A stretch of 64,000 nt of DNA, taken from the NCBI GenBank assembly GCA_018715625.1, contig DVLG01000035.1, positions 24,080 through 88,079 on the forward strand, read 5' to 3'. The position numbers and the translations under genes are program-made. Within the stretch, counting starts at the first letter, position 1. The number at the start of each line of letters is the position of its first letter. The notes below the pieces were generated by a model. The model was not told where the DNA came from. It saw nothing but the letters and a program-made list of their open reading frames with translations, and searched no databases. The stretch is from Candidatus Scatovivens faecipullorum (GTDB lineage Bacteria; Bacillota; Clostridia; TANB77; CAG-508). This document shows positions 14,679 to 43,477 of this stretch, in pieces.

Positions 14679-17600
14679 TTATTTAAGAACTTTTTTCTTA
14701 ATTACTACTATTCCTATTGCAATTACTGCAAGAGCAACAACTACAGCAGCAAGTATTTGTATTGTCATAACTGTTCCTGAATTGATACCTGTTGGAGGAG
14801 TAAATGTTACAAGTTCTGTTGCACTTGAATCTCTTTCTTTAAGAGCTACTTCAAATTCTCCAAGTGTTGGATTTGCATTACCTGGAACTGCAACTATATC
14901 TCTTCTACCAACTGAATTTTCTATTTTAACAATTTCTGCTATATTGTCATAATTTAAGTTATTTGCATCATCTTCTGCAGAAACTGTTTTTGTTATAGTT
15001 AAAACTATTTGAGATTTATAAGCATCTGCATTTTCTTTATATGGTACTAGTTTTGCTTCAAATCCTGAGTTATTCATTTGATCTGTATTTTCTTGTGTAT
15101 CAATACTTAATATTACATTATTTCTTTGGTCTGTGATATATGCAATACCTTTTTTATCAATTAATTCATATTCTGTTGTTATTACATCTGATAATAACTT
15201 ATCTGATCCATATCCACTACCAGTTAACTCTGTAACATTTGTATTTTTCCAGCTATGATCTTTTGCATTATTTAATTCTGCTGAGAATATACCATCATTA
15301 TCAACATAATCTACAATTTGACGAACTCTTGTTGTAACAACTTTATCAGCTCTTACATCATTTGTATAATAAGTTGTTCCTAAATATTCACCTGCTTTTG
15401 AAATTCCTTTGGCAGTATCTTCATAAGCTTTATTTGCAAGAAGTTTAAGAGCTTCTTTTTCTGTTCTAGGTTTAATTCCTGTAAGTTCCTCTACTTTTGT
15501 AAAGTTTTGTTCAGAAATATTTTCTAGTATTTCACTTGTTCTATCAACTTCACCAACATTTAATGCACTAACTTGATAATTAATTTCTATTGTTGTACCT
15601 TGTAATATTGTTTCATCAATATTTACATATCTGAAGTTTTGCATTCCAGAAATTTCCCTATCTGTTGGCTTTTCTTCACATTTATTAATTGCTTGCATTA
15701 CATCTGTTGCAACTGAAGAGTCAGATAATGAAACATCAGCAATTAAATATTTATTTCCTAGTTTAGTTATTATAGTCTTATCTGAAACACCTTCTAATAA
15801 ATCAGTTTCTCTATAATTAATATCATAGATTGCATTAAATATTATGTTTCCATCATTTGTAGTTAATTTAATTGAACTTATTTGTTTATCAAGAACTACT
15901 GCTGTTTCAGGTCTTTCAATTAATCCAAAATCTATGTTGTTAATTAAGTAATTTGTTCCTTCTTTTTGTACTCTAACACTTCCAGCTTCTAATACAGTTC
16001 CTAAAATTTCAGGTTTTTCTTCTACACCTTCGCCAAAGTTTTCTATAAATAAACTTATCTTTGCTGTATCTGCAAACATTGAATAATCATTATATAAATC
16101 AGTATGTTTTTCATCTAATTTATTTGCAGTTGCAAGTACTGTTCCATTTACATTTGTTATAGTTTCTGAATTTGATGTAATTTCAAGTCTTCTAGCTTCA
16201 CTATCTTTTGCATCTGAAACTCTTGCGTTTGCTAAATCAATATTATCTAAATCATGCCATTCATTGTTTACATAACCATTATCATCTACACTTGTAAATC
16301 CTGATTGATAAATTGTAGATCTATAATCTTGACCATTATAAATAGCTGCTGTTTTTCCTTCAAGATCTTTATCATAATTTGCTGTTAAAATATTGTCTTC
16401 ATCAAAACGTTCACCATTTGCTTTATATGCTTCTGGATCTCCAGAAATTTCAAATGTATCTTCTAAATCTAATTTATTGTTTCCATATAAAAATCTTACA
16501 ACATAATCTCCAACTGGAACTGATGTAAATTTATAAGAACCAACACTAGATTCATTTTCTACGTTTTCTCTTGAAGTTTCTGTTGTACTGTCAAAACCTG
16601 TTAGATATTCTAGTGTTTTTCCACCTAAAACATCTAATTGTTTACTTGTTGGCCACAAGAAATCATATTCTCTATCTCCAACTTTTATTTTTTCAACAAG
16701 TTCTGTAGTTAATCCTCCAATTAAAGCTTCATCACCCTCATCATAAAGTCCATTTCCTACTGCTGTATCTCCTTCTGGTTTATCTTCCCAAGCTAAACCA
16801 TTTATTTCTCTATTTTCTTCTACTATTGTTAATTCTAATACTGGTGCTGAATCAGTATCATCTTCATACCATGATTTTTCATTGTAGCTTCTGATGTTTA
16901 CGTTTGCTGGTGCTGAATCTCTATCTATTTTACCTGCGTTTCTACCATCAGTATAACTTGTTGAATAACTTGAAATTTCAGCTACATTTGACTTATCTCC
17001 AAGTCTAATTGTATCTTCAACTCCATCTATATTTTCTTTATCTAATGCAAATGTTACATAAATATCAGCTTTTTCTCCACTTCTTAAGCTTATATCTAAA
17101 TTTTGAGCTGTCATTTTATTATAAGTTACTCCATCAGAACCTTTGATTCCTCTTTCTGTAACATTCCATGTAACATTTTTATTTCCAGATGGTGATTCTA
17201 CATAAGAAGCGTTCGCTACTTCTGTTAATCCATTTTGTTCTGCTCCGTCTATTGTTTTTACATATTTTTCTACTTTTGTATCAATTGGATCTCCAAATGA
17301 ACTATCAAAGTAATCATCAACTGAATTTATTTTAGTAATATAATCTGGTCCTTCATTATATAAACTTATCTTATATGTTAAATAAACATCTAATTCTGTT
17401 GCATCAATACTTGTTCCTAAATCTTTATAGAATTTTTCTATTGCATCATATCCTGTTATATTAGAGTTTGCTTGATACATTTCTGCTCTGTAATAATAAT
17501 CTGTACTGTATAACCCTAATTGATATTCAATTTGAGTTGTGTCTGCATATAATTGTCTACTATAACAATCTGAACCAATATCTTCTAATTTATTAAATTT

Positions 17601-20600
17601 ATAATTTAACAACTTATCATTAACAACTACTTTAGCTGAAACTAAATCCTTAGTTGTTCCTAAATCAACTTCTGGTCTTCTCTTTAATCCTAAATTAATG
17701 TGTAATGTATAATTATAAGTTGCAGAATACATATAATATTGAACTAATCCAAGTTCATTTATATAAGTATCATAGCTTTCTAAATGAATTCTATTATCAA
17801 ATGGATAAGTTAATCCTCCAACTGATGTTCTTGCTTTAGCCTTAAATAAATCTTTTGCAGTTCCATCAGCATTTTGAGTTTGTACTTCTGAAGATATTCT
17901 TGAAGTTCCATTTGCTACTGCAGATTTTGCTCCTTCATAGAAAATGTCTTTTTCTCTTTCACTTTCCACAGCAGTACCTATTGTTTCACCTTCACCATTT
18001 ATTTCTGTTTTTCCTTTAATTTCTTGAATTCTATTATCAACTTCTTCTCTATCATAGTCTAAAGCCATAGAGTCTCTTGCCCAAGCATCTCTTCCTGAAG
18101 TTGAAGCACTTCTATAAGCATTGGCATCTCCATTTGAAGTTGCTAAGAATTTTGTTGGTTCATAAGTTTGACCATCATAAACAAATTCAATATCATAAGT
18201 TCCTGATTTTAATATTTTTACACTTGGAGCTTCCCAATGTCCACCATCTGTTGTAATTATTGGTTGACTAATTTCTTCTCCATCATCATAAATTGTTGCT
18301 AAATTTCCGTTATTATCATAAATATATACTTCAATTCCATCTAATCTTCTTTCATTGTCATCCATTATACCGTTTTCAACAGAATTTTCTGTATTTTTAT
18401 CATTTTCATCAAGTGGTGTATCTTCCCATACATCACCTGCAAGTTTAATTGTTAAATCTATAACTGTTAAAGTTTCTAATCTGTTTGAAACAACTATCTC
18501 TAAGTTATCAGAAATCTCTGCCCCATTATTTGATATGCTAACATTTTTCCAACCTTTTGGAATATTATTTTCAGTTACAGTTACTGTTGGAGCATTATCA
18601 CCCCACCATTTAATTGTTGGTGATGTATATGTTTCTCCACCTTTCAAGCTGATATTAATTACTCTTGTTGAATCAACAACACTTTGTCCATCCATTTCAA
18701 AAGTACCTGAAATTGTAACTGTCATATCAAAACTTGGAAGTTCTAATCCATCTAATAATTTTTCATCAGCAATTATTTCTTTTCTAACTGTAAAGCTTCC
18801 CTCATGCTCTTCATATTTGTTTGTTGCTACAACAGATATTGTTTGACCTTCTGGAGCCAATTTTCCTTCTGCATTATCTATTCTAACTACTTCTGTTCCT
18901 TCTGGAAGATTAATTTCTTCAACTTTATATGAAGGAGCTTCTTCTGTTACATACCATTTAAACATATCTGATTTATATGTTTGATTTGCTTTTATTGTTA
19001 CTATAAATGGCTCATATCCATCTACTGTAACTCTAAATGTAAATTCTTCATCACCAATAACACCATTTTCAACTAATTTTGTTATTTCTAAATATCCACC
19101 TGTTAATTTAGGTTCGTTTATAAATGTTGCTATTGTTGCTTCTGCTCCTGGTTTTATAGTTCCACTAGCATTTAAAACTGATATATTGTTTGCAATTTCT
19201 GATTCTAGCTCTTCTACTGTATAAGTTGGAGCTGAATTTCCATACCATTTAATTGTTCCGGAATCCCACTGACTACCGCCAGAAACTGTTATTTCTTGAG
19301 AAAATTCTTCTCCAGCAGCTTCTCCTGGTCCATATTTTGTTCCATTATATTCAAAAGCACCTCTTATAGTTACTTTGAATTTAAATTCTTGACCATTTAA
19401 ACTTTCATGAGTTACTTGTTTTTTAACGATTAAGTTTCCAGAATTTTCATTTGCTCTATTTACAAATTCATTATCTGTTGTAATTAATATTTCCCCAGTT
19501 TGGCTCTCTTTTAATTTTCCTTGTATACCATTTTCTATTTGTGTTCCGCCATCTGAAGTTGCTGATACAAATTCTGTTCCTTCTGGAAGGTCAATTTCTG
19601 TTATTGTATAGTTTGGAGCTTCCGCATCAGCTGCCCAAGTAAATGCATTTGATGTATATTCCCAAACATAAGAATCACCTTTTTTCTCTGCATTTAATGA
19701 AACCACATAAGGTTCATATCCATCTACTGTAATTTGGAATTTAAATACTAAAGAATTTATATATTCAGTAGACATTCCTTGTGCATTTTCTAGTGTTTTT
19801 ATAATATGAAGATATCCTGCTTTTGGAGTTATGTCTCTATTCCAAGCTGTTACTTTTACTGTGTTTGTACCTTCTGATACATCAGCTAAAGTACCTTTAG
19901 AAGGTTCAACTGATGAAGCAATATCTTCTGCAAGTAAATTCTCTTCTACTGTATATTCTGGAGCCATTTCTCCATTCCATGTAAATTCATCTGAAGTCCA
20001 TACAGTAGGGGCGTCTACACTACTTACTTTTATTACAACAAAACTATTTTCATCATAAATATCGTTTGTTATTTCTACTGCTGAATCATTTGTTAATTGA
20101 ATTTTGGTTCCTGGTCCATAAGTTTGACCTTTATATGTGAAACTTCCTTTAGAAGTTACTGTTACCACAAACTTAAATTCTTTATCAACTAATGTATCTG
20201 AATCTATATGTTTTGTTATTTCAATTCTACCTGAATGAGGTTTTTCTATTCTGTTTACAATGTTATTTGTAACTTCAAAATCTTTTGTTTCATCACTAAC
20301 TAAAGTTCCTGTAATTGTTTGTCCATTTACTGTTATTTGTACATCATCACTTGTTGCTGTAACAAAACTTGTTCCTTCTGGATTATCAACCTCTGTTATT
20401 GTATAATTTGGATTATTTCCAGCAAACCATTCATAATATCCAGATGTATATTCCCAAACATAAGAATTATCTTTTCTTATTGGTGAAATTTCAATTCTTT
20501 GTTTATCATATCCATCCACAGAAATTTCAAAATTAAATTTTAATTTCATTATTTCTTCTTCAGAATATAATTCTGCATTTTCTAATGTCTTTATAATATG

Positions 20601-22922
20601 AATTTTTGCTTTTTCTATTGTTTGCTCATTTATTGCTGTTACTGTTACTGTTTCATCATCAGATAATCTACCTGAACTTGGTGTTATAGAAATTAACTCA
20701 GCAAATTCTGAACTTAACTCTTCAACTTTATATTTAGGAGCTGTTTCTCCATACCATTTAACATTTCCTAAATTCCATTCTCCTCTTCCATTATTAATTG
20801 TAATAGAAGCATCTATGGTAGTTGAAGCATCATTATATTTTTGTCCATTATATTTAAATGTTCCACTTAAAGTTACTTTAAAGTTAAAAGTTTTACCCTC
20901 TAAATTACTTTCTTTTCCATTTAAAATATTTTTATCTATTTTCTTTACGATTTTTAAGTTACCAGTATGCTCTCCAATATTAGTAGCTTTTACCTTTACT
21001 GTTCTTCCATCTCTTAATTCTCCTGAAGCATTTTCAAGGTCTAATTGTTTAAAACCATCTTTGTCAATTTCTTCAACAGTATAAGTTGGATTTCCATTTT
21101 CAACATTCCAATAATATGTTTTAGTAGTTGCTGAACGTCCAGCTTTAACTCTTATTATATCTGAGCCCCCATTTATAGCACCATCTACATTAACTCTGAA
21201 ATAGAAGAATTTGTTTACGTCTTTTACTTCTTCTCCATCTTCATCAACTACTTCTTTTTCTATTCTAATTTTTCCACTTCTAATATCTAATCTTCTATCT
21301 AAATGAGTTGTATTATACCATCTTGCTGCTTTTAATCCACCAGCTAATTGTTGAGAAGTCTTTTCAACTATATCTTTATCCGAATATTCTACCCAATAAT
21401 CAGTTGATTCAACATGTGGTTTATATTGTCCATGTTCACAAGGTGTTCCTCCACTACAGCTATGATGAGATATATTTTCTCCACTACCAGTAGTCCAACT
21501 ATGTGCACCTGTTCTTCCATGTGAACAAGTATGACCATCTGTACACCAATTTTGTTTTTCTTTTGCAGTCCAAGTTACCTCATTATAAGTTCCTCTTAAA
21601 TCTTCATATTGTCCTCCAGCATTCATATACCTAAAGTCAAATGATAGATTTGTTATCTTAGTTAAATTTTCTTTATCTTTTAATGCTATATAAAATACTT
21701 CATTTTCGTGTGGAAACTCATATGTATCATCTAGTTCTCTTTCTCCATCTAGCCATACAAAACTCCAATCAACATTTCTTACTAATGCTTCTTCTGAAGC
21801 ATCAGTATACAATTTTGCATCTGTTATACCTGCAAATTGTACTGCATTTCTACCTTCAACTTGTGCTCCGGCTTCAACATAGTTAATAGAAAAAGGTCCA
21901 ACTTTATATTCACCTAATTCACTATCCCATGTTACTGTTGGAGTATTTAAATCATAATTGTTTGAATTATTAATAGCTTTATATGAATCATTGTCATTAA
22001 AACTAACTTTATATTCTAATTCTGGAGCTTTTACTGTTCCTTTAACACCATTTACTTCAAATTCAGTATCAACAAAATCTGCTGTATTCATAGATTTAGC
22101 TATTCTTGAAATATACGTTTCAAAAGCCCTTGCCTCCTCTGTCAATCCATTTGCTGGAACTGGGTTACTTCCAGCTGCTAAGTTATCTGTATTCCACCAA
22201 GCTCTTTGAACATAAGAATATACGCCCCATCCTTGATCAGTGCTTTCTTCAACATAATAATATTTTCCATCCGTATCTTGTACAACAAGTGTTTCTTTTC
22301 CAACTCCACCTTCAATTACGTAAACTGTCAAATCTCCTGCCGTAGTTGCAGTTGCATTAGCTAATGCTTCTGTGTCGGTAAATTCTATCTTATTACCATG
22401 TTCATCACCTAAGAATTTCAATCCACCATTTTCAAAATTTGGAAGATTATTAATCATTTCAGATAATATATAAGCTTCCATTGGAGTAGCAATTCTTACA
22501 TCATTTACAACATATTTTCCATAAGTCTTATTCATATAAGTACCTTGTTTGAATGGTGTTTCTGTATTTTCTCCTTCAAGGTTTACTTCGAATAATTTTC
22601 CTCCACCGTCTCCTTTTTCAATAGTTCCGGTATAGCTTGGGTCAGAGCTTCCCATTTCTGTTACTAATGTAGCTCCTCCATCTCCTGTTAATGGAGTTCC
22701 ATGAGAAGAACAAAATATTTCATATCTTTGAACTAAATCATTATAAGTTAAATAATCTTCAGCGCCAATTTGACCGTTTGCCATACCTGGTCCTTCTGAT
22801 TCCATCTCATCTGTAATTTCTTGTGCATAAGTTTTATAAATTATAAAGGTGCTTAACAATAATAGTATAATTGCTAAAGCTAATATTAAAATTTTATTAG
22901 AATTTTTTATGATTTTTTTCAT
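14679..22922 (-). CDS. giant surface protein B2 (2747 aa): signal peptide, putative thioester (TED-like) head, Cys/His-rich insert, eight CnaB/SpaA-like domains, SdrD-B-like domains, TPPTG sorting signal plus TM plus KKK tail
   Basis: A single uninterrupted ORF. ATG 22922 (MKKIIKNSNKILILALAIILLLL...AQE) lies 4 nt after the B1 stop, with the GGAGGTG RBS inside the last B1 codons. The GTG at 22934 in the ORF track is part of that RBS. See the findings for motifs. Confidence 0.9.
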   Translation of the reverse strand: MKKIIKNSNKILILALAIILLLLSTFIIYKTYAQEITDEMESEGPGMANGQIGAEDYLTYNDLVQRYEIFCSSHGTPLTGDGGATLVTEMGSSDPSYTGTIEKGDGGGKLFEVNLEGENTETPFKQGTYMNKTYGKYVVNDVRIATPMEAYILSEMINNLPNFENGGLKFLGDEHGNKIEFTDTEALANATATTAGDLTVYVIEGGVGKETLVVQDTDGKYYYVEESTDQGWGVYSYVQRAWWNTDNLAAGSNPVPANGLTEEARAFETYISRIAKSMNTADFVDTEFEVNGVKGTVKAPELEYKVSFNDNDSYKAINNSNNYDLNTPTVTWDSELGEYKVGPFSINYVEAGAQVEGRNAVQFAGITDAKLYTDASEEALVRNVDWSFVWLDGERELDDTYEFPHENEVFYIALKDKENLTKITNLSFDFRYMNAGGQYEDLRGTYNEVTWTAKEKQNWCTDGHTCSHGRTGAHSWTTGSGENISHHSCSGGTPCEHGQYKPHVESTDYWVEYSDKDIVEKTSQQLAGGLKAARWYNTTHLDRRLDIRSGKIRIEKEVVDEDGEEVKDVNKFFYFRVNVDGAINGGSDIIRVKAGRSATTKTYYWNVENGNPTYTVEEIDKDGFKQLDLENASGELRDGRTVKVKATNIGEHTGNLKIVKKIDKNILNGKESNLEGKTFNFKVTLSGTFKYNGQKYNDASTTIDASITINNGRGEWNLGNVKWYGETAPKYKVEELSSEFAELISITPSSGRLSDDETVTVTAINEQTIEKAKIHIIKTLENAELYSEEEIMKLKFNFEISVDGYDKQRIEISPIRKDNSYVWEYTSGYYEWFAGNNPNYTITEVDNPEGTSFVTATSDDVQITVNGQTITGTLVSDETKDFEVTNNIVNRIEKPHSGRIEITKHIDSDTLVDKEFKFVVTVTSKGSFTYKGQTYGPGTKIQLTNDSAVEITNDIYDENSFVVIKVSSVDAPTVWTSDEFTWNGEMAPEYTVEENLLAEDIASSVEPSKGTLADVSEGTNTVKVTAWNRDITPKAGYLHIIKTLENAQGMSTEYINSLVFKFQITVDGYEPYVVSLNAEKKGDSYVWEYTSNAFTWAADAEAPNYTITEIDLPEGTEFVSATSDGGTQIENGIQGKLKESQTGEILITTDNEFVNRANENSGNLIVKKQVTHESLNGQEFKFKVTIRGAFEYNGTKYGPGEAAGEEFSQEITVSGGSQWDSGTIKWYGNSAPTYTVEELESEIANNISVLNASGTIKPGAEATIATFINEPKLTGGYLEITKLVENGVIGDEEFTFRVTVDGYEPFIVTIKANQTYKSDMFKWYVTEEAPSYKVEEINLPEGTEVVRIDNAEGKLAPEGQTISVVATNKYEEHEGSFTVRKEIIADEKLLDGLELPSFDMTVTISGTFEMDGQSVVDSTRVINISLKGGETYTSPTIKWWGDNAPTVTVTENNIPKGWKNVSISNNGAEISDNLEIVVSNRLETLTVIDLTIKLAGDVWEDTPLDENDKNTENSVENGIMDDNERRLDGIEVYIYDNNGNLATIYDDGEEISQPIITTDGGHWEAPSVKILKSGTYDIEFVYDGQTYEPTKFLATSNGDANAYRSASTSGRDAWARDSMALDYDREEVDNRIQEIKGKTEINGEGETIGTAVESEREKDIFYEGAKSAVANGTSRISSEVQTQNADGTAKDLFKAKARTSVGGLTYPFDNRIHLESYDTYINELGLVQYYMYSATYNYTLHINLGLKRRPEVDLGTTKDLVSAKVVVNDKLLNYKFNKLEDIGSDCYSRQLYADTTQIEYQLGLYSTDYYYRAEMYQANSNITGYDAIEKFYKDLGTSIDATELDVYLTYKISLYNEGPDYITKINSVDDYFDSSFGDPIDTKVEKYVKTIDGAEQNGLTEVANASYVESPSGNKNVTWNVTERGIKGSDGVTYNKMTAQNLDISLRSGEKADIYVTFALDKENIDGVEDTIRLGDKSNVAEISSYSTSYTDGRNAGKIDRDSAPANVNIRSYNEKSWYEDDTDSAPVLELTIVEENREINGLAWEDKPEGDTAVGNGLYDEGDEALIGGLTTELVEKIKVGDREYDFLWPTSKQLDVLGGKTLEYLTGFDSTTETSRENVENESSVGSYKFTSVPVGDYVVRFLYGNNKLDLEDTFEISGDPEAYKANGERFDEDNILTANYDKDLEGKTAAIYNGQDYRSTIYQSGFTSVDDNGYVNNEWHDLDNIDLANARVSDAKDSEARRLEITSNSETITNVNGTVLATANKLDEKHTDLYNDYSMFADTAKISLFIENFGEGVEEKPEILGTVLEAGSVRVQKEGTNYLINNIDFGLIERPETAVVLDKQISSIKLTTNDGNIIFNAIYDINYRETDLLEGVSDKTIITKLGNKYLIADVSLSDSSVATDVMQAINKCEEKPTDREISGMQNFRYVNIDETILQGTTIEINYQVSALNVGEVDRTSEILENISEQNFTKVEELTGIKPRTEKEALKLLANKAYEDTAKGISKAGEYLGTTYYTNDVRADKVVTTRVRQIVDYVDNDGIFSAELNNAKDHSWKNTNVTELTGSGYGSDKLLSDVITTEYELIDKKGIAYITDQRNNVILSIDTQENTDQMNNSGFEAKLVPYKENADAYKSQIVLTITKTVSAEDDANNLNYDNIAEIVKIENSVGRRDIVAVPGNANPTLGEFEVALKERDSSATELVTFTPPTGINSGTVMTIQILAAVVVALAVIAIGIVVIKKKVLK

Positions 22923-22926
22923 ATCA

Positions 22927-25900
22927 TTAAACACCTCCTTTTCTCTTTGCTAATACAATTTTATTATATGCTATAAATATTACTATACTTCCTAATAATA
23001 TTGTTGTTATAATTACTGAAATATATATGAATGTTTCACCAGTTTTTGCAGAAATAATTACGTCTGCTGAACCTATATCATTTTCACCTTGTGCTTTATT
23101 TGCTGGTGTTGAGTTAATATCTGAAATACCATATATATTGTAATCTTCATAAATTTCTGCTAGGTTGTTAGTAAGTCCTATATTTTCTTCTGTTACTTGT
23201 TTTGTTAAAACTAATTTAACAGATGCTGACTCACCAGGTTTTAATTCTCTTTCTGCAAGTTCTGCTGAATATAGATTTCCATCAGATCCTGTATACCAGC
23301 TTGCATTTGCTTCTAATCCAGAATTAAATGTCATTCCTTCTGGCATATAATCTATAATTTGTTTTGCATATCCTGCCACATCACCTTCATTTGATACTGT
23401 AATTGTATATTCTACATATACAACAGATCCATATAAATGTTTAGCAGCAATTTCTGTTTTGGCTAATGTTACATTATCATATTCATCATTTTGAGTTCCT
23501 GTAGCAGATTGTGTTGTTACTTTAGTTATAGTTTTGTCTAATTTTAAATCAAATTTATCTGCTAAAACTAAACCAATATCTATGCCAGATGTACTACCAT
23601 TTGAAATAGTGATAACTTCTGTAATAGCACCATTTCTTGTTTTACCATCTTGTTCTAATTTTGTTGTTACAGCATCTGAGTTAACATTTATATCTACTCC
23701 GTCTTTTTTATAAGCTGTAACTGTATATTTTACTGTATCATACTCAAAAATTACTAAGTAGTCTCCATTTTTTACTCCTGAAAATGTGTATGAACCATTT
23801 GCATCTGTTGTTACAGACGTTTGAATTGCACCAGATTGACTATCAACTAATCTAACAATTATTCCTGATAATAATTGCTCATCTGTTGTTCTCATACCAT
23901 CTTTATTACTATCAAGCCAAGCTGTACCTGTTAATTTATATGTTTTTTCAATATTACTACTTCCATAAGAATTATTAGAACTTGAAGATGATTGTAATGA
24001 GCTTGCAACAAAAGATTTTCCAGCATTTTCTATTATATGAGTAATTTCATTAGTTTTTTGTGGCTCATTATTTTCTGCAGTTACTGTAGCAGTATTAGTA
24101 ACTGTTTTTTCTTGAACACCATTTAAGACACTTGCTACTGCCTGAACAGTTACTAATACTTCAGTATTTGGATTAATAGCTAAATCTACTAAAGCTTGAT
24201 CATTTGCTGAAATATTTTTCTTATTTACTACTCCATCAATTGTATAACTTATACTTTTTATATTTAAACCATCTGGAATTTCATCTACTAATCTAACTTG
24301 TTTTGCTTTTACACTACCTTCATTTTTTATAGAAAAAATATATTCAATAACTTCTCCTTCTTTTACATATGTTTCTGTAGTTGATGTAGTTTGAGATACA
24401 CTAATTAAAGGAACTCCTATACTAATCGGTACATTATTTGAAGTATATGTATCGGTATCTTGTGCTTTTACATTTGTATAATTATCTAATGTTGTCTCAA
24501 TTTTGCCTTCCTGTAATTTATTTCCTTTTATAACATAACTTAAGTCTGCATATCCATTAACTTCTAATGTCCCTATATTCCATGTAATAGTTCTTGTTGA
24601 AGCATCATAACCTACATTTTCTAAATTGCCATTCATATCAGCTGAAATAAATTCTAATTCTTCTGGTAAAACTTTAGTAGCTACTACATTATTTTGAACT
24701 TTAGAAGAAGTATTTGCAATTGAAATGCCAAACTCAAATTCATTTCCTAATGGTTGAGTTGCAGACGTAAAAGCAACATCTCTAGAATATTCTTTAATAT
24801 AAAATTCAGATTCTTTTAAATTAATGTATTTTTTCTCTGTCTGTAACTCAACATCTAAATCTTTTGCAGTTACACTAGAAAAAATTTCTATTTTTACATC
24901 TGGAATAGAGGTAATTTCAGTATCTTTATATCCAATTACTTCTCCAGTATCTTCACTATTTTCTATTTCTTCTAATGTCTTATCATATTTTCTAATTACG
25001 TATATTCCATCTTCTCTTTGGAAAAAGCCTTCTGTTCCTGCATAATATTGTTCTATAGTTGGTAATTCTTTTGCTGACAAAGTAATTTCTATTTCTGTGT
25101 TTTCGTCTTTTTCTAATCCTGGAACATTAGCTACTATATTTCCGTTTATTTCTTCTATTTTCACATCTTCTTTTTCACAATAAGCATTTTTATAAATTGT
25201 AAAATTTGGAACTGGCGTAGTTACTATTATATTCTCAGCTCTATTTTCCCCAATATTTGAAACTTTAACTTCTACTTTAAATTCCTCTTCAACTTTTACT
25301 GTTTCTTTATCTAATGAAACTTCTAAGTTTAATTCAGGTCCTTCTCCAGTTGTTAAACCAATTTTATCAGGAGTTGCTTTTTCGTCAGTTTTTGCTATTT
25401 CTGAATTATTTGTATAATATGCTAAAAATGTTCCATAGATATTTTCATTATGAGTTAAATTTGCAGGAATTTCATATTGATATGTAAATCTTAAAATTGC
25501 TGTTTCTTGCATTTCATAATTTTCATCTTGAGGTACTATTAAGTATGATTTTATATTTTCAAAACTTGTTGGGTTCATTGTCCAACCATTTTCTGAATTA
25601 TTTAAATCATTATTTGCTTCTCCATTTTCAGAATAGTAAATATTAAATGCTACTCCATTTCTTTCATCAGAAACTATAGGACCAATTAGTTTTGTATCTA
25701 ATGTTGTACCTAAGTCTTCTCCTGTTTCTATATCTTTTACTCCTTTAAAAGGAATTCTACCTAATATAGATACATCTGAAACTGTATTTTCATTGTTGTT
25801 CATTACAACAATTTCCATTGTTGCAGCTTTTGCTTCTGAATAAATATCAATTAAATCTTCTTTTACACCTTGTCTTACAGATGTTGTAATTGAACCTACT

Positions 25901-28953: not shown

Positions 28954-31900
28954 TTATTTATAACGTCTCTTTTTGATTTTTGTAATTGTTACTTTTGTTA
29001 CAATTACTACTAAAGCTACTACGGCTACTACGATTGCTACTACTATTATACTTGTTCTTGCTGTCTCAACTGTATTAACAATCATTCTTCTATTTCTCAT
29101 TAAACCTGTTGGAGGTGTTAATGTAATTGTTTCTGTTGCTGCAGTATCTGATTCAAAAGATGCTGTTACAAATTCCTCGCTACCAATTTCTGGTTTATCT
29201 TGTGCTGCTTCCATGTTAACATCAGCATTACCAATTGTTGTAGCAAAGTTTGTTCTTCTACCTGTTAATGTTGTAAATTGTATAATCTCTGCCATGTTTT
29301 CATAAGTCATATCTTCTGTATCTGCTTCTGCTGATACTACTTTAGATACTGGTAAGTATACTGTACCCATAGAATAATGATAATTTGTAGTATCTGGATC
29401 TGTTACTTTTGGTAATAAGAATCTTGCCAAATCTACGTTATTTACTTGATATTTATCTTGAGCTTCTTCAATATTTGTTTGAACATTTCTTGAATACTCA
29501 TCATCTCTGATTCTATCATCAACTGATACAACTAGGTTCTTATATTCTATGCCTTTAGTATTTGTTAGTTTAACATTAGTTGTAATATCTTCTCCTATAG
29601 CATAATTTTCAGTTGTCTCATTGTTTGTATTTTGTTCATCTGTTTTATTTTCTTCTTTATTGTTATTTCCTTCAACAAGGTCTCTTACTGCTAATACATG
29701 ATTTACTAATTCTGATGTTGTACTTCTTCTCCAGTACTTACTTAATAATTTATCATCACTTGTTTCTTGTTCAAACTCTAGGTCTGTGTCAACATAGTCT
29801 AATATCTTATCAAATTTCAAGCTTGCAATTGTATCTAAGTTAGTATCTTTTCCAGTATAATATGCATATCCTACATATCTACCAAAATATCCACCGTCTC
29901 CTGCTGGCTTATTATTTGCATCAGTTTCATTAGTAATTGTTTTCTTCATGTTTCTGTATAAATCTTTATTTTCATCTAGTGCATAAGTATCTGCATAAAT
30001 AATATTTCTTGCTGTTCCTGAAGCTGTATAATCTTTATCTATAATATTTACACCTTTACCATTATATGCATTGATTAAATTAATTGTTGCATCATTTTCT
30101 TTATATCTGATATCATCAAGATTTTCTGTGATTCTATCTACCTCACTATTGTTTTGTGCTTTAAATTTATAAGTAATTTCTATTTTAGATCCTTGTAAAA
30201 TATCATCATCTATTTGTAAGTAAACAAATCCTTGAAGTTCTTCTGTTGCAAGTCCTGATAGTAGGGCTGTATAATCATTTGAAATGAATTGTACTAAGTC
30301 AAGTCCTACTGATTTTTCCATATCTAAGTGGTGAGTTGCATGTTCGCCTTCACCCTCTGTATAGAAGAATAAGTCAGCTAATGTTTCTCCATCTTCTGTT
30401 GTTATCTTCATTTCATCAATTTCTTTTAATAAGCTTATTTGTGATTCAGGTCTATATTCAACACCAAAGTCTACGTTTTCAATCTTGAAGTCCCTAGCAT
30501 TGTTGTCTGCATATTGCATAGCTTCTAGTTCTTTATAGTAAATTTCATTTGCTAAATCTTCAGCTGTACCATTTCCTAAATCAACATTTGTTCTTACAAT
30601 ATATTTTGATGTTTGCTCTTGTGTTAATTTCTCAGTTTTTACTAAGAATTCAACTGTTTCAGCATTCATATATGTGTTTTCTGTTAATGCTTTTAATTGA
30701 TCCACATCATTTGCTCTAGATATTGGTGTCATTTCTTCAATTCCATTTGCAACACCTTTTAGAATTTCTGCAAGTTCGTTTGTCATAACTTCTGAGAATC
30801 TATTAACTTCTAGTCTTCTAATTTCATCATCTCTAGCATCTGATTTGTTTACAACCTCTAATTGTTTAATTATTTCATCAACATCTGTTTCTGTATCACT
30901 TAAATCTGTTGTATATTTTGTTGATTTATAATCTTGACCATTAAAGATTAACATATCTTTTTGAGCTTCAATATCTGGGTTATATGTTGTAGAATTTTTG
31001 TTTTCTTCAACTGTATCACCATAAGTAAATCTTACAACATATCTACCTGGAACAAATCCTTCAAGTTCATAATTACCATCTGTATCTGTTCTTGTATGTT
31101 GAACTTGCTTCCATGTAACATCACTTAAGATTTCTTCATAATAATGAATTTGATTATTATTATTTGCATCTTTTGCATAGTTACCGTTTTCATCACGTAC
31201 TGGAATATCAACAATTTCAACAAATTCTGCTCTTGCACTTCTAACTTTAATATCCTTTTCTTCTGTTTCTGAACCATCTTTGTAGTTAATTTCTACGTTT
31301 TGATTCATTTTGCCATCATTGTTTTTCTGCTTATCAGGATTATAGTTACCATCACCAATATATTGTGTTTCTCCAGCTTCTCCTAAAGTTTCTGTTCTAG
31401 AATCATCCCAAACCATACCAGAAATACTTCTTCTAATATCTGGTGTATTCTGAACTTCTACAATAATGTTATTTTTACTGTATTTTTCTGTTATTATTTC
31501 TTTTGTATTTACTGTTGCATCTGCAACAAGTTCAATACCTGTTTTATATGTCATATCTTCATAGTAGTCTATATTATCTGCAGAGGTTTCGCTTTCAGCA
31601 TATCCTCCACTTCCAGGAATTACTCCTGTGCTATCATTTTTGATACCAATGTTACCAGCATTTGAGTCCATATCTACAAGTGAAGTTGGTTTTCCATCTG
31701 TGTACCAAACTGAGTAAGCATTAACTTGTGCAATGTTTTCTGTACCTCTACCGAATTTATTTTTGAAATCTGTTGCTACATTTTCAGCTATTTTTAAAGA
31801 TCTCTCTAAAGTTGTTGTTTTTGTAGTAGTTGTTGAACCACTTTCTTCTCCTGTTGTTATTGATCCATTTTCTTTTTCTTCAGTATTAGAACTTGCACTT

Positions 31901-34900
31901 GATGTTGAAGATTTTGTTTCTTCATAATTTTCATTTGTAATACCTACTTCTAAAGCTTCTTTATCAAGTACATATTTAACATAAATATCTAAATCTTCTC
32001 CTTCATGGATAATCTCATTCTCCATACCTCTAATATATACTGTGTTATATCCATCAGCTTCAAAGTTATTTTTCTTTTCAGAATATGTACCTAAAGCTCC
32101 TCTTGAAGAAATATTTGATAATGTTAAATCAATTTTTACATAATTTCCTGCAGGATCTTCTTTATAAATTGGTTTTGCTCCTGCTGCTACTTCTGTAGGA
32201 TTTTCAATACTATATTTTGTTCCATTTGCAGCATCTCCTGCTTCGCTTGCTTCTTTAAAGTACCAAGCCTCAGCAATCTTAATTGGTTTATCAACTAAGA
32301 AGCCATTATCATCTTTATTTTTTACAACTACTGTATTTGGAGATCCAACTGTTGGATTTGGAACACTTACCATATTTCCATTTTCATCAAATTGTATTTG
32401 AACAAAGTTCTTGTCATATATGTCTAGAATTTCATGTATCTTAACATCTAGTTTAGTATCAGTTACAGGAGGATTTTTACCTTCATAATTTACAGTATCA
32501 TCATCAGTAACTGCTTTATTATCAACTGTTATTCTATATGTTACCTCAACATTTAATTCACTCTCACCATTTATACCTTTATACTCTCTAACTGCTTGTG
32601 CTTTATATTGCTCAAATCTGTATTTATAGTCAGATTCATATAACTCTAAACCATAAGGTTTTGAAATTATATAATTTTGTAAATATGGATTTTGATCTGT
32701 AGCTTCCATATCACCATTTAAACCATTGTTTTGGTTGTAGTTGTATTCCATTTCTTCACCATCAATAGTTGTTTTTACTTTATAAACATCTTTTGTTAAT
32801 GCAATATCAACATCTTCTCTTAACTCTAAACCTAAATTGATGTGTTTTAAGTATTCAGTTTCTGGTTTTTCATTATTTTGAGCTCCTCCAAATGGATATA
32901 ACCATAAGTAGTTAGTTGAATTTGCATCATTTTTATTTGAAGGAACATTTATAAAGCTTCTTGCTGTCATTAATCTTGAGTTATCTTCCATTAATTGTGA
33001 AGTGTGTTCAGTCTTATCAAAAACTAATTCATTAGTTTTATTAAATCCTAAATCATAAGCTACATTATATGAAATGTATTCATATTTTGTATTAAATTGT
33101 TCTCTTACATCTGTAAATTCAGCTGCATTAGAATCAATCAAATATTCTTGTTCAAAGCTTCCATCATCTTTTAGATGTTTCTTACCATCTGTTCCAGCAT
33201 AGAATTCTGTACTCTTATATATAACACCATCATATTCGTATTCTATATAATAACTTACATATTTACTATTTGCTGTGTAGTTTCCATTTGCATCTTTATT
33301 GTCAGCTTTGTCAACACGTTGATATGTTGTATTTAATGAGAATCCTGTGTCATGATTATATGTACCATACCAGTTTAAGTTCTCATCTCTACCAAATGTA
33401 TATAAACCATTTTGGTCTGTTTTGGTTGTTCTTAATAATGTACCATCTGATTTATAAAGATGAACAATTACATCTTTCTTTCTAGCATCTTGGTTAACAT
33501 TATAGTATGCTTGTTTTGTAGCATCAACATCTTTGTCTGTCATAAATCCATCTCTATCAAAGTCTACCCAAACATTACCTGCAATTACTAAGTCTTTCAT
33601 TCTTACGTATTCTTTTGTTTCTTCTTGTTTAGAAATGTTTTCATCATGATTTGGATTTCTAACTTCTCTATTATTATCATCTGTATGGTTAATGTTAGTT
33701 AGTATTGTTAAGTCAGCTCTGTTCTCTAAATCATATAAATACATATTGCTTTCTGTAACTTCTACAGTTACATAGTAAATAATGTATTCACCTGGATTTA
33801 AGATTGTTTCATTTCCAATAGTGTATTCATATTTGTTGTAATTTCTTCCGTTTTCACTAATTGCTGATGGAGCTGAAACATTAACATTCACTTTTCCATC
33901 ACCATTATATCTTGTACAAACACTACCATCACTATTATACATTACAGCTTCAACAGATTTTTGAGTTAAACCAACCTCCATTTTATCTGTAACTTTAGTT
34001 GTTCTAACTTGAGTTGCTGGTTTTGTACCAGAACTTAAAGATTTATTAACTGTTGTTGCTTCATTTGTAATCTTAATAGCATATACAATTGTTTCATATT
34101 TTTCAACTGAAACTGGATGTTCTTTCTTATAAGTGTCTTTGTTATTTGGTTCTCTCACTCTATCATTTACATTTCCATCAGATAAAGTACTATATTGTTT
34201 ACTGTCATTCATTCTTGAAGTTTTTAAAGTACCATCATTATTTGTAATTATACCATTATTTGTAAATGAATTGTTATTGTTTTCTTTTTGTATTTTTTCA
34301 TCATAAGTATAAATGTATTTATCAACAAATGTGTTATAGTTATTTATTTTGTAATAATCTTTTGTTTCTGTTCTTATTGGGTTATTTTTAATAACATCAT
34401 ATTTATCATCAACTGTTGAAGTCTGTGCTGTTCCTCTATTGATGTTTCTCATTTCTCCAATAAATTTAACACTATTTGTTTCAACAGTTCCTTTTGTATA
34501 TTCATCTACTGTTAAAGTAACTGTTATTGTTCTAGTACCATTTGCTGGAATCATCAAGTTTTTAATTGTGAATTTTCCACCATTTGTACTACTATCAGTC
34601 TTAGATATTGTATAAGATTTGTTTCCTGGTATTGTTGTACCACTTACAGTAATATCTAAGTTAGAATATTTTTTAGGTAATGTATCTTCTATATCTACAT
34701 AAACCTTATCTGGTTTCCAATATGGAGCATTATTATAATCTATCTTAGAGTCATATTTATTTGTTGTATTATAAACTATTATCTTATATGTAATAGTATC
34801 TCCATATTCTGCGTATACTGGATTAGCTTTTTTAGCATCTTCTGTTACACCTTTTGTTATAGATCTTTGATCTGTTGCTTTTAAGGTTGTATCTATACTG

Positions 34901-37257
34901 CTAATTCCAATATTGTCTTGATTATGTTCTACATCATAAATATATTTTTCAATATTTACATTGTACTCTTTAATCTCATAAGTATCTGAATCTTTTTCTT
35001 TCAAATTAGTTGTGTTATCATTAGCGTCTGTATTTACCATACTACCATATCGGTGTGCACCATGAGTAGAATTTTCTCCCCATATAACATACTGCATGTG
35101 TTCACTTGATGTATTGGTTGTAATAAATTCTATTGTATTTGTATAAACTCCCTCTGGTCGAGTTGGTCTAACTTTAATTTCATAAACATTTTTATTATGA
35201 GGTGCTACTTCTATCCATTGACTATATTTTATACTATCTGGCATTTCCTCCAGAGAACAATCTACCAAATTAGCATAAACTGGCTCACAACCTTCTGGTA
35301 AAACATCTTTTACTTTTACTCTAGTTGGGAATCTTGAATCATTTATAATTTCTATAGTATAAGTAACTAAATCTCCTCTTTCTACTTTTACTGGATTATT
35401 ACGTTTTTGATCCATTGTCCAATCTCTTCTTTGGTTTCCTGAAAAAATATTTCCTATTTCTCCAACATGATCAACACTTGTAATATATTTATATATTGTC
35501 ATTTGTGTTTTTAATGGAACTGCAACACGAATTGTATATTCCATTTGTTCTGATGAAAGTAAACCTGCTCCTGAAAATGCGTCTTGTGCGTAGTCTCCTC
35601 CATTAGTTGGTTCATTCCATGTAAAGTCCCAACAATCTTCATGACGATGTCCACATAAATATGTGCAATAGTGACTAGTTGAATCAGTCCCACCACATGC
35701 ATGATGATCTCCTGGACAACTGTATGATGGTGGATCTCCTCCATCAGATTCGCAACCTCCACAAGAATATGTATAGCAATTTACGCACCATGTATGTGTA
35801 CAGGTTCCAGTCCAAGGACTATCCGTGCTTCCAGGTGATCTACTTTTATGATGGCTGCCACCTAATCCCGGATCTGGACAACTATATGAACAACCTGATT
35901 GACTTGTTGAAGAATAACCGTTAAAGTTTATGGCTTCTTGTAGTCCTTCATACCATGTTCCTGCACCAGATGCATGTATTTTTTGATATGTAAATCTAAT
36001 ATCTAATAATTCATCATATCCATTAATTGCTGCTGAGCTAAAATCAATATAAAATTCTGAACCTGGTTCTGGAACAGGAAATTCTATTGTTTTAGTTTGT
36101 CCACTTTCATTTGTTAATATAGCTTCAGCTTTAATAATTGTTCCTCTTAAATCTGAGTCTGATCCGTTTCTTCCTTGAGTATTTGTAAATTCTGTTTGAA
36201 GATTTTTTGCATTAGCAGAATTACTTGGAGTATATTTTTCATAACGATCATCATCTACTAATACATAATGTGCTTTTTCACTATCGCTTAAAGCCTCATA
36301 TTCAGCTTTAGTTATACTTGTTACTGTATAAGAGTCTAAACTAAATGAATAATTTTCAGCTCTCACATAATTACTCATTTTAAACGGACCAACTTTATAT
36401 GTACTATTTGAAACTGTTGCTCCAACATTATCTTCTGGTTTAACATCTACATTAGGATTTTTTGAATCCTCATGATATTTATCAAATATTTGGGCTGCAC
36501 CTAATAATGGATTCGTCTCTCCTGGTTTTAATTGTCCAAGCCAAGACCATAATGCATGTTGTAATGGATCTGATGTATATCCTGTACTTGCTCTTTCTCC
36601 ATCTGATTGTTTATACCTTGCAAGTAAGAAAGCCATAGCTCCATCTGAAAAATCTCCTTTTCCTTGTCTTACACCAATATTAGCTTTTCTAGTTTCACAA
36701 TCAAAGGCAACATTATGAGGAATATATACCCAGTTTGTATATACAGTATCTGCAGGAGTTTCTGTAGATTCTCTATATCCATCATAAACACTTAAATTTT
36801 TTTGTATTGAACCATTTTGATCTAAATATATTGGAGCGCTTGTATCAATATCTAAATATGGAATTTCTGCTTCATTTTTTGTTGAAGCACTATCTACTTT
36901 ATGTTTTGTTATTGTATGTGTTTTATGATAAGCACTTCCTAGTATAGTATTTCTTTTAGCTCCATACGCCGTTCCATGCTGAGCACAGAAATAGTCTGCA
37001 GAACTATTAAATACAGCTCCATTTACAGGAAAAGTTTCTATTCTTTTATATCCTGGTGCTTTATACGAATATGCTTTTGTAATTTTTTTATTTACAATTC
37101 CTAATCCAACAGGACTTCCGCTAATAGTACTTCCAAATTCTGTTTGTAATGAATCAACATTAGCACCTATTGTTGTAGGTATAAATAAATATCCAAGTCC
37201 TAATAATACTAAACCTATTATTAACATTGTTAATACATATTTTATTTTTTCTCTCAT
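28954..37257 (-). CDS. giant surface protein A2 (2767 aa): signal/anchor peptide, putative thioester (TED-like) head, 12-Cys/8-His insert, multiple beta-sandwich and SdrD-B-like domains, S/T-rich linker, TPPTG sorting signal plus TM plus basic tail
   Basis: A single uninterrupted ORF. ATG 37257 lies 12 nt after the A1 stop, with a GGAGGTG RBS in the gap. It is a paralogue of B2, sharing the YKVGPF...NYV motif, the Cys/His insert position, VW(x)D SdrD-B-like units and the TPPTG tail. Confidence 0.9.
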   Translation of the reverse strand: MREKIKYVLTMLIIGLVLLGLGYLFIPTTIGANVDSLQTEFGSTISGSPVGLGIVNKKITKAYSYKAPGYKRIETFPVNGAVFNSSADYFCAQHGTAYGAKRNTILGSAYHKTHTITKHKVDSASTKNEAEIPYLDIDTSAPIYLDQNGSIQKNLSVYDGYRESTETPADTVYTNWVYIPHNVAFDCETRKANIGVRQGKGDFSDGAMAFLLARYKQSDGERASTGYTSDPLQHALWSWLGQLKPGETNPLLGAAQIFDKYHEDSKNPNVDVKPEDNVGATVSNSTYKVGPFKMSNYVRAENYSFSLDSYTVTSITKAEYEALSDSEKAHYVLVDDDRYEKYTPSNSANAKNLQTEFTNTQGRNGSDSDLRGTIIKAEAILTNESGQTKTIEFPVPEPGSEFYIDFSSAAINGYDELLDIRFTYQKIHASGAGTWYEGLQEAINFNGYSSTSQSGCSYSCPDPGLGGSHHKSRSPGSTDSPWTGTCTHTWCVNCYTYSCGGCESDGGDPPSYSCPGDHHACGGTDSTSHYCTYLCGHRHEDCWDFTWNEPTNGGDYAQDAFSGAGLLSSEQMEYTIRVAVPLKTQMTIYKYITSVDHVGEIGNIFSGNQRRDWTMDQKRNNPVKVERGDLVTYTIEIINDSRFPTRVKVKDVLPEGCEPVYANLVDCSLEEMPDSIKYSQWIEVAPHNKNVYEIKVRPTRPEGVYTNTIEFITTNTSSEHMQYVIWGENSTHGAHRYGSMVNTDANDNTTNLKEKDSDTYEIKEYNVNIEKYIYDVEHNQDNIGISSIDTTLKATDQRSITKGVTEDAKKANPVYAEYGDTITYKIIVYNTTNKYDSKIDYNNAPYWKPDKVYVDIEDTLPKKYSNLDITVSGTTIPGNKSYTISKTDSSTNGGKFTIKNLMIPANGTRTITVTLTVDEYTKGTVETNSVKFIGEMRNINRGTAQTSTVDDKYDVIKNNPIRTETKDYYKINNYNTFVDKYIYTYDEKIQKENNNNSFTNNGIITNNDGTLKTSRMNDSKQYSTLSDGNVNDRVREPNNKDTYKKEHPVSVEKYETIVYAIKITNEATTVNKSLSSGTKPATQVRTTKVTDKMEVGLTQKSVEAVMYNSDGSVCTRYNGDGKVNVNVSAPSAISENGRNYNKYEYTIGNETILNPGEYIIYYVTVEVTESNMYLYDLENRADLTILTNINHTDDNNREVRNPNHDENISKQEETKEYVRMKDLVIAGNVWVDFDRDGFMTDKDVDATKQAYYNVNQDARKKDVIVHLYKSDGTLLRTTKTDQNGLYTFGRDENLNWYGTYNHDTGFSLNTTYQRVDKADNKDANGNYTANSKYVSYYIEYEYDGVIYKSTEFYAGTDGKKHLKDDGSFEQEYLIDSNAAEFTDVREQFNTKYEYISYNVAYDLGFNKTNELVFDKTEHTSQLMEDNSRLMTARSFINVPSNKNDANSTNYLWLYPFGGAQNNEKPETEYLKHINLGLELREDVDIALTKDVYKVKTTIDGEEMEYNYNQNNGLNGDMEATDQNPYLQNYIISKPYGLELYESDYKYRFEQYKAQAVREYKGINGESELNVEVTYRITVDNKAVTDDDTVNYEGKNPPVTDTKLDVKIHEILDIYDKNFVQIQFDENGNMVSVPNPTVGSPNTVVVKNKDDNGFLVDKPIKIAEAWYFKEASEAGDAANGTKYSIENPTEVAAGAKPIYKEDPAGNYVKIDLTLSNISSRGALGTYSEKKNNFEADGYNTVYIRGMENEIIHEGEDLDIYVKYVLDKEALEVGITNENYEETKSSTSSASSNTEEKENGSITTGEESGSTTTTKTTTLERSLKIAENVATDFKNKFGRGTENIAQVNAYSVWYTDGKPTSLVDMDSNAGNIGIKNDSTGVIPGSGGYAESETSADNIDYYEDMTYKTGIELVADATVNTKEIITEKYSKNNIIVEVQNTPDIRRSISGMVWDDSRTETLGEAGETQYIGDGNYNPDKQKNNDGKMNQNVEINYKDGSETEEKDIKVRSARAEFVEIVDIPVRDENGNYAKDANNNNQIHYYEEILSDVTWKQVQHTRTDTDGNYELEGFVPGRYVVRFTYGDTVEENKNSTTYNPDIEAQKDMLIFNGQDYKSTKYTTDLSDTETDVDEIIKQLEVVNKSDARDDEIRRLEVNRFSEVMTNELAEILKGVANGIEEMTPISRANDVDQLKALTENTYMNAETVEFLVKTEKLTQEQTSKYIVRTNVDLGNGTAEDLANEIYYKELEAMQYADNNARDFKIENVDFGVEYRPESQISLLKEIDEMKITTEDGETLADLFFYTEGEGEHATHHLDMEKSVGLDLVQFISNDYTALLSGLATEELQGFVYLQIDDDILQGSKIEITYKFKAQNNSEVDRITENLDDIRYKENDATINLINAYNGKGVNIIDKDYTASGTARNIIYADTYALDENKDLYRNMKKTITNETDANNKPAGDGGYFGRYVGYAYYTGKDTNLDTIASLKFDKILDYVDTDLEFEQETSDDKLLSKYWRRSTTSELVNHVLAVRDLVEGNNNKEENKTDEQNTNNETTENYAIGEDITTNVKLTNTKGIEYKNLVVSVDDRIRDDEYSRNVQTNIEEAQDKYQVNNVDLARFLLPKVTDPDTTNYHYSMGTVYLPVSKVVSAEADTEDMTYENMAEIIQFTTLTGRRTNFATTIGNADVNMEAAQDKPEIGSEEFVTASFESDTAATETITLTPPTGLMRNRRMIVNTVETARTSIIVVAIVVAVVALVVIVTKVTITKIKKRRYK

Positions 37258-43170: not shown

Positions 43171-43231
43171 ACAAAACTCCTTTTCTTTAGAATCTGGACG
43201 CAATACGTCTACTTTTTTATTTATATATAAA

Positions 43232-43260
43232 ATATTACTCTTTTTCAAAAACTTTGTAAA
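43232..43260 (-). promoter_or_regulatory. sigma-A promoter candidate for cassette A (A1-A2)
   Basis: On the minus strand: TTTACA (complement of 43255-43260), a 17-nt spacer, then TAATAT (complement of 43232-43237). It lies about 55 nt upstream of the A1 ATG. Confidence 0.45.
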
Positions 43261-43406: not shown

Positions 43407-43477
43407 TCCGTAAGTTTTAATCAACTTTTAATTTTAAATGCATATCATATATTAATATTGTATAAGGGGGAATTATT

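Follow-up and report, generated by a model that had tools for sequence, protein, structure and literature searches.

A possible divergent, enlarged thioester domain at the head of a giant surface protein of Candidatus Scatovivens faecipullorum

Covalent adhesion through a thioester has been described in a limited number of Gram-positive proteins, which are defined by Pfam. In this study, we analysed A2, a giant open reading frame (ORF) of 2767 amino acids (aa) on the minus strand of a 64,000-nucleotide (nt) stretch of Candidatus Scatovivens faecipullorum (contig DVLG01000035.1, positions 24,080 to 88,079; this whole stretch is called the window below), and we compared its N-terminal head with the thioester domains (TEDs) of such proteins.

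Three TED motifs were defined by Walden 2015 (PMC4450167) and Miller 2018 (PMC6194298). The first, [YFL]C-hydrophobic-hydrophilic, contains the bonding Cys on beta-strand C. The second, TQxA(I/V)W, now written TQxx(hydrophobic)W, lies on the central helix alpha2, and its Gln and Trp form hydrogen bonds with the Cys backbone but no bond with the Cys itself, and bond formation does not require them. The bonding Gln is in the third motif, a weak one (hydrophobic-Q-hydrophilic-hydrophobic-hydrophobic), which belongs to the last, C-terminal beta-strand of the domain (PMC4450167, PMC6194298). The Cys and this Gln are the sole universally conserved TED residues, and in class II TEDs the Cys is on strand C, a beta-sandwich stands between alpha3 and strand P, and the Gln is on strand Q of a return hairpin (PMC6194298). 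In class I TEDs (Cpa, SfbI, FbaB, CpTIE, PnTIE), the Gln strand begins about 10 residues after alpha3 and the Cys and Gln are 130-155 residues apart. The A2 head resembles class I TEDs in its Cys motif and its TQxA(I/V)W-type helix motif, whereas several hundred residues intervene before its candidate Gln strand. The closest likeness is to the class II TEDs of the TIE proteins (BaTIE 6FWV, SaTIE, EfmTIE86, TIE_pLS20), which share with A2 the signal peptide, the N-terminal head, the repetitive stalk and the C-terminal anchor.

Motifs of the A2 head and their conservation

The first-pass annotation of this DNA had placed Cys91 in DYFCAQHG and Gln233 in DPLQHALWSW, 142 residues apart, and had read the two as both halves of a Cys-Gln thioester. 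Both codons were verified (Table 1), and both motifs fit TED patterns, FCAQ agreeing with [YFL]C-hydrophobic-hydrophilic and LQHALW agreeing with TQxA(I/V)W at Q, A, the hydrophobic residue and W. When the A2 sequence was shuffled 20,000 times, the two motifs stood 100-250 residues apart in 0.03% of the shuffles. The pairing of the two residues did not hold up, since LQHALW is the motif of helix alpha2, whose Gln is non-bonding in characterised TEDs; the annotation had merged the helix motif with the motif of the bonding Gln. Because LQHALW is analogous to TQxA(I/V)W, Gln233 would by this analogy not be the thioester Gln, and it is probably the counterpart of the helix-motif Gln. A third motif stands further downstream, and its AQDAF segment, which includes Gln558, fits the hydrophobic-Q-hydrophilic-hydrophobic-hydrophobic motif of the bonding Gln. 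We consider it an evenly balanced proposition that the A2 head represents a thioester domain of class II-like layout, enlarged and highly divergent, in which Cys91 would bond Gln558 and Gln233 and Trp237 would act as helpers.

The conservation of these motifs was assessed in a family of related heads. Word-indexed searches gave 3 relatives of the A2 head and 13 relatives of the head of A4, a second giant of the window with the same head. In an exhaustive profile search, 312 cluster representatives (clustered at 50% identity) were obtained at E <= 1e-3, of which 90 also passed E <= 1e-30. The majority are 2000-3900 aa long with the head at the N-terminus; all are metagenome-derived and unnamed or labelled 'hypothetical', and one homologue fragment carries the label Erysipelotrichaceae. 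By hhalign, the A2-like subfamily is homologous to the A4-like one (probability 100%, E = 7e-40). In our literature search, neither a described 'class III' TED nor a description of this head family was found.

The Cys was kept in 83 of the 89 aligned heads, as the first-pass annotation had expected of orthologues, and of the six exceptions at least P0043 is misaligned and does carry the Cys. Across the family, the Cys is often followed by S, C or N in place of a hydrophobic residue, and Gly95 was kept in 78/89 heads. The Q, A and W of Q-x-A-x-W were present in all 89 heads. This set had been chosen by the pattern Q-x-[AGS]-x-W, so Ala alone represents a selection-independent invariance; the same three residues were likewise invariant in an unselected alignment of 17 sequences. 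The Thr that opens the helix motif in TEDs is replaced by V, L or I in the head family. For the third motif, Gln558 was kept in all eight A2-subfamily members that reach it, the subfamily version being G-D-x-A-Q-D-[AG]-[FY]. The A4-like version, [SA]-Q-x-L-(10)-A-R-W-Y-E, had its Gln (Gln528 in A4) in 62/62 matches aligned by hidden Markov model (HMM) and in 40 of the 42 non-gap rows of a further alignment. In both subfamilies, this Gln stands 27 residues ahead of the first stalk strand. The strongest conservation in the head falls on the Cys, on the Q, A and W of the helix motif and on the third-motif Gln, in agreement with the universal conservation of Cys and bonding Gln in TEDs.

No invariant His, Asp or second Cys was found in the head family alignments, which argues against a protease triad and a disulfide and mirrors the situation in TEDs. 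An enzymatic head, such as a protease, a transglutaminase or an amidase with Cys91 as its nucleophile, was suggested by the invariant Cys and by the His that often follows three residues later (C-x-x-H-G in A2 and A4). However, this His is swapped for Lys or Arg in about 40% of the members, no His, Asp or Asn is invariant in the head, and Pfam and NCBIfam scans gave no match to peptidase or transglutaminase families. We regard this explanation as scarcely credible, and the Cys-protease and transglutaminase candidates were rejected on the lack of an invariant His or Asp.

A disulfide was also rejected, as there is no invariant partner Cys and the N-terminal lobe (N-lobe) of A4 has a single Cys. 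A second Cys of A2, Cys187 (in FDCE, 36697-36699), lies just before helix 1 and occurs in 10/10 A2-subfamily heads and in 26 of the 89 family heads.

Structure models, covariation and the candidate partner of the cysteine

The first-pass annotation had proposed a structure prediction of the A2 head with a check of whether Cys91 and Gln233 are juxtaposed. The AlphaFold model of A2 aa 31-450 (17 sequences) had a predicted local distance difference test score (pLDDT) of 49 and was too poor to use, probably because the alignment was too shallow and the return hairpin had been left out; locally, the second half of the sandwich (model residues 344-399) reached about 90. The paralogous head of A4 (aa 36-575, 49-sequence alignment) was modelled well, with a pLDDT of 87.2 and a predicted TM-score (pTM) of 0.82. 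The proposed juxtaposition is in any case not discriminating, because in true TEDs the helix-motif Gln, though unbonded to the Cys, forms hydrogen bonds with its backbone.

The A4 model begins with strands A and B, followed by strand C, the third, which ends in Cys75, by more N-lobe strands and by helix 1. An A4-specific insertion, helix 2 with VQRAWW, helix 3 and a large beta-sandwich (model residues 253-429) come next. At the end, a low-confidence Cys/His-rich loop leads to a hairpin (model residues 472-491 and beyond), whose second strand contains Gln528 and continues into the stalk. In this model, the order of the elements is the class II TED order of Miller 2018 (PMC6194298). The points of likeness to class II TEDs are the Cys in a [YFL]C motif on the third beta-strand, the Q...W motif on the middle of three helices, the sandwich after the third helix, and a Q-x-L Gln on the second strand of the return hairpin, with the first stalk domain about 25 residues further on. 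For A2, we propose a corresponding order, borrowed from the A4 model: an N-lobe with the Cys strand, three helices, the beta-sandwich, a Cys/His-rich insert and the Gln hairpin. Within the sandwich, whose strands were predicted with confidence in A4, the G, P and F of the Y-K-V-G-P-F motif are near-invariant across the family.

Covariation was measured as mutual information with average-product correction in 56 heads with all three motifs (effective number about 50), a small sample drawn from the A4-like subfamily. Over the whole head, the segment best coupled to the Cys strand (A4 aa 70-80) was the Gln528 hairpin (aa 520-536) and vice versa, and their top pair, Tyr71-Gly533, ranked 6th of 41,041 long-range pairs. 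The coupling exceeded that of 98-99.5% of random distant segment pairs (p 0.005-0.04 over two alignments) and recurred in an independent alignment of 39 sequences. Members without the Cys give a second line of evidence. The clade of P0128 and P0156 has neither the N-lobe Cys nor a detectable third motif, yet its helix motif (QQALW) and the G-P-F motif of its sandwich are retained; the clade could represent a naturally 'thioester-less' form. Taken together, the covariation and the Cys-less clade point to the third-motif Gln, and not to Gln233, as the putative functional partner of the Cys.

These results bear on the literal model of the first-pass annotation, in which the thioester joins Cys91 and Gln233 of LQHALW. 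Gln233 is invariant in the family and more conserved than the helix-motif Gln of canonical TEDs, and in TEDs this Gln adjoins the Cys. Nevertheless, the helix-motif Gln is unbonded in every characterised TED and its mutation leaves bond formation intact. The QxAxW motif was helical in both AlphaFold runs and formed the second of the three main helices in the A4 model, whereas bonding Gln residues are sited on a beta-strand. Moreover, no covariation signal was obtained between the Cys strand and helix 2 (null fraction 0.2-0.27), and the helix motif is retained in the clade that has no Cys. We therefore consider a Cys91-Gln233 thioester very improbable.

We propose how the A2 head would work if Cys91 is bonded to Gln558, taking TEDs as the model. 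During folding, Cys91, which terminates an N-lobe beta-strand, would attack the side-chain amide of a Gln that is returned to the N-lobe on a beta-hairpin after the inserted beta-sandwich, most likely Gln558, 467 residues downstream. Ammonia would be released and a buried Cys-Gln thioester would be left, with Gln233 and Trp237, on the middle of the three helices, packing against the Cys strand and positioning it while remaining unbonded. A nucleophile of the target, for example a Lys amine, would then open the thioester, and the Gln would become isopeptide-linked to the target. The outcome would be a bacterium covalently tethered at the end of a very long stalk. The data show the motifs and their conservation, the head family, the order of secondary-structure elements in A4 and the coupling of the Cys strand to the Gln hairpin; from these we infer that the fold is that of TEDs, which Gln would be bonded in A2, that a bond exists and what it does.

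Relationship of the head to known thioester domains

Membership of the TED family is not established, and several results weigh against a thioester domain in A2 with Gln558 as its bonding residue. The HMM searches proposed in the first-pass annotation came out negative: Pfam PF08341 (TED) and PF20610 (TED_2) and NCBIfam TIGR03934 (TQXA_dom) gave no match at E <= 10 for A2, A4, the isolated heads or 49 family heads. Foldseek of the A4 head model against the PDB (350,542 chains) gave no match at E <= 1e-3. The full-length class II TED protein BaTIE (6fwv_A) came at rank 2 with E = 0.081 and a probability of 0.25, the highest of the list; with a TM of 0.12 and a root-mean-square deviation of 23 A, this match is too weak to serve as evidence, and it may rest on immunoglobulin (Ig)-like domains. 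Cys91 and Gln558 are 467 aa apart, over double the distance in any known TED. As the A2 model was unusable, both the structural evidence and the covariation derive from the paralogous A4-like proteins, and hhalign pairs the third-motif Gln of A2 with that of A4 weakly (P = 0.026). P0069 keeps the third motif without the Cys strand, which may reflect a miscalled N-terminus. A second invariant Gln, Gln354, exists in the A2 subfamily.

The profile-profile comparison also belongs among these points. A class II TED alignment of 16 sequences was built from pLS20-type plasmid proteins, and hhalign of the A4-like family against it gave P = 0.009 (0.005 was also obtained), along a collinear path that matched Cys to Cys and Gln528 to the thioester Gln. 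The untrimmed score was above those of 40 block-shuffled decoys. However, the Viterbi core consisted of the signal peptide and the Cys motif, and after the signal peptides and the start of the stalk had been trimmed, P rose to 0.19, the level of the decoys. The hhalign similarity to class II TEDs was rejected as support, because its score had come from the signal peptide and the Cys motif.

Further searches with the heads were also negative. The head gave nothing relevant in phmmer and profile hmmsearch against PDB sequences, and the A4 head model gave no significant Foldseek match in BFVD. As a positive control, TIE_pLS20, a genetically supported class II TED protein of plasmid pLS20 (L002:6477-8780), matched both Pfam TED models. 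A homologue search seeded with it gave at least one protein, and a scan of genome contigs gave at least two near-identical loci. With phmmer against PDB sequences, the TED of TIE_pLS20 recovered no solved TED. Since a bona fide TED misses the TEDs of the PDB, negative sequence searches are not decisive; TEDs are too divergent for that.

Gln354 raises the question of whether a thioester is present with another partner in the A2 subfamily. Its LQxxF motif (N-L-Q-T-E-F in A2) is kept in 10/10 A2-subfamily sequences and fits the hydrophobic-Q-hydrophilic-hydrophobic-hydrophobic pattern, and the resulting Cys-Gln spacing of 263 residues would be more TED-like. In addition, hhalign of the A2 subfamily against the TED alignment set the TED thioester Gln on Gln354. 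That alignment was not significant, the pLDDT of the region in the A2 model was 30-40, and most of the family, the A4-like members, show no conservation at this position, with Q, M, D and others in its place, whereas Gln558 is the family-wide homologous position. A bond to Gln354 appears improbable to us.

A broader alternative is that the head is a new non-covalent ligand-binding adhesin domain, in which the Cys is a free thiol serving in packing, in redox sensing or in metal contact with the Cys/His-rich insert, and the likeness to TEDs is convergent or coincidental. The Pfam, NCBIfam, PDB profile, Foldseek and trimmed hhalign comparisons all gave no clear match to TEDs, the domain is about twice the size of known TEDs, and the insert adjoins the hairpin, all of which would suit this explanation. 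On the other hand, a lone invariant extracellular Cys together with two invariant Gln motifs in TED order and context is hard to explain without chemistry, and the Cys strand covaries specifically with the Gln hairpin. The insert is highly variable in length: it is absent in P0005 and P0017 and exceeds 200 aa in P0003 and P0138, and pLDDT is low for the equivalent loop of A4 (aa ~464-505). Since many Cys-bearing members, P0005 and P0017 among them, have no insert, membership of a metal site is not enough to explain the Cys. We judge a non-covalent head to be rather unlikely, although it deserves more weight than the other alternatives. The insert itself is a possible zinc binder, which among Gram-positive surface proteins would be unusual.

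Apart from the missing Pfam or NCBIfam match and the lack of a significant profile or fold match, the head family differs from class II TEDs in several ways. Its Cys-Gln spacing is about 335-480 residues, compared with 170-205 in class II. Its N-lobe and sandwich are larger, a variable Cys/His-rich insert precedes the hairpin, and its helix motif has strictly invariant Q, A and W. Compared with TIE proteins, the family has an [ST][PEA]PTG anchor in place of LPXTG and lengths of 2000-3900 aa in place of 500-1500.

Stalk, anchor and gene context

The first-pass annotation had placed its TED on a long stalk with a sorting signal. The architecture stood, with an N-terminal head, a secreted giant and a sorting-like end; the TED assignment itself found no match among TED models. 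The C-terminus of A2, with TPPTG, a membrane span and a basic tail, is sorting-like and non-canonical with respect to LPXTG, and A4 also ends in a TPPTG signal. In about 70 of the 91 long family members, [ST][PEA]PTG (46 PPTG, 16 EPTG and 7 APTG) stands before a spacer, which leads to a membrane span and a basic tail; a conserved SATE[LV][IV]TF precedes the signal. In the two head-less giants of the window, SAKTG (A3) and LVSTG (A1) stand before the membrane spans. In Pfam, the A2 stalk gave weak SdrD_B and CarboxypepD_reg matches alone; DUF11-type matches were also reported for the stalk. A2 is probably a secreted giant fibre protein that is processed by sortase.

Table 1. Coordinates of the four giant ORFs and of the parts of A2 and A4 (window positions)
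Feature	Position	Strand	Remarks
A1	37270-43248	minus	Giant ORF, head-less paralogue, DUF11/CLIPPER and SdrD_B matches
A2	28954..37257	minus	2767-aa ORF: signal peptide, head, long repetitive stalk, C-terminal sorting-like signal
A3	22927-28443	minus	Giant ORF, head-less paralogue, DUF11/CLIPPER and SdrD_B matches
A4	14679..22934	minus	2751-aa ORF (2747 aa from likely ATG); paralogue with same head as A2
A2 signal-peptide-like segment, aa 1-33	37159..37257	minus	MREKIKYVLTMLIIGLVLLGLGYLFIPTTIGAN; hydrophobic; read directly from sequence
A2 head domain, aa ~60-582	35512..37080	minus	From family alignments; element order borrowed from AlphaFold model of A4
A2 Cys motif, D88-Y-F-C91-A-Q-H-G95	36973..36996	minus	Cys91 = TGT, codon 36985-36987; proposed thioester Cys
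A2 helix motif, D230-P-L-Q233-H-A-L-W237-S-W	36541..36570	minus	Gln233 = CAA, codon 36559-36561; 142 residues after Cys91
A2 beta-sandwich, aa ~272-444	35926..36444	minus	Includes Y-K-V-G-P-F motif, aa 287-292
A2 LQxxF motif, N-L-Q354-T-E-F	36187..36204	minus	A2-subfamily-specific; alternative candidate bonding Gln
A2 Cys/His-rich insert, aa 453-545	35623..35901	minus	12 Cys, 9 His; between beta-sandwich and Gln hairpin
A2 third motif, G553-G-D-Y-A-Q558-D-A-F-S-G-A-G...E-Y	35536..35601	minus	Gln558 codon 35584-35586; proposed bond-forming Gln on return hairpin
A2 C-terminal sorting-like signal	28957..29121	minus	L-T-P-P-T-G, spacer, hydrophobic span, KKRRYK; read from sequence
A4 Cys motif, Cys75 (EIFCSSHG)	22698-22721	minus	
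A4 helix motif, Gln243 (YVQRAWW)	22194-22217	minus	
A4 third motif, Gln528	21312-21362	minus	
A4 C-terminal signal	14682-14804		TPPTG

The window has a G+C content of 27%, and the four giant ORFs lie consecutively on its minus strand. They form two tight gene pairs, A1-A2 with a gap of 12 nt and A3-A4 with a gap of 4 nt, and about 0.5 kb separates A2 from A3. The neighbouring genes of the window are chromosomal housekeeping and sporulation genes (mreCD, a penicillin-binding protein (PBP) gene, minC, spoIIE, ypeB, ftsH, dnaB and rpoC). A protein identical to A2 is present on 7 metagenome contigs. In two other metagenome organisms (the loci compared with the window are L018, L022 and L023), the same order was found, with mreC-mreD-PBP-minC followed by a head-less giant with DUF11/SdrD_B matches and then by a headed giant. 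This recurrence suggests that the giants form a conserved two-protein surface structure beside a cluster for cell shape and division.

Two small genes of 126 and 46 aa are called on the opposite strand between A1 and minC (43249-43996). A small pair of 105 and 45 aa stands at the matching place in L023 (L018 3258-3780 is also listed for this pair). The small genes between minC and the first giant gave no Pfam match.

The arrangement can be compared with the tip adhesins and backbone pilins of sortase-assembled pili, in which a headed adhesin gene is likewise paired with a head-less gene of Ig-like repeats (here A1-A2 and A3-A4), a pairing that is conserved elsewhere. In contrast to sortase pili, no sortase gene was found within the window, and the giants are ten times larger than pilins.

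The first-pass annotation was probably right about the kind of domain and wrong about its Gln. If the thioester is real, the A2 head would be a new class of a known kind of domain. At somewhat less than an even chance, and hence tentatively, we propose that the family is a third structural class of bacterial TED that Pfam and NCBIfam have missed. In this class, a Cys and a Gln 335-480 residues apart would be joined by a return hairpin that follows an enlarged sandwich and a variable, possibly zinc-binding insert. The domain would cap fibres of 2000-3900 aa with a non-LPXTG [ST]xPTG anchor, encoded in pairs of head-less and headed genes beside mreCD-pbp-minC of uncultured gut Bacillota.

Should the head form no thioester, the family would nevertheless represent a new adhesin head, and its single invariant Cys would lack an explanation. 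If it does form one, thioester chemistry would extend to a large unannotated family of 312 clusters, current TED models would miss an entire class, and the TED fold would tolerate insertions of several hundred residues between its Cys and its Gln. Proteins that are among the largest in uncultured Bacillota would then have a function assigned, and new self-reactive protein-ligation modules would be gained.

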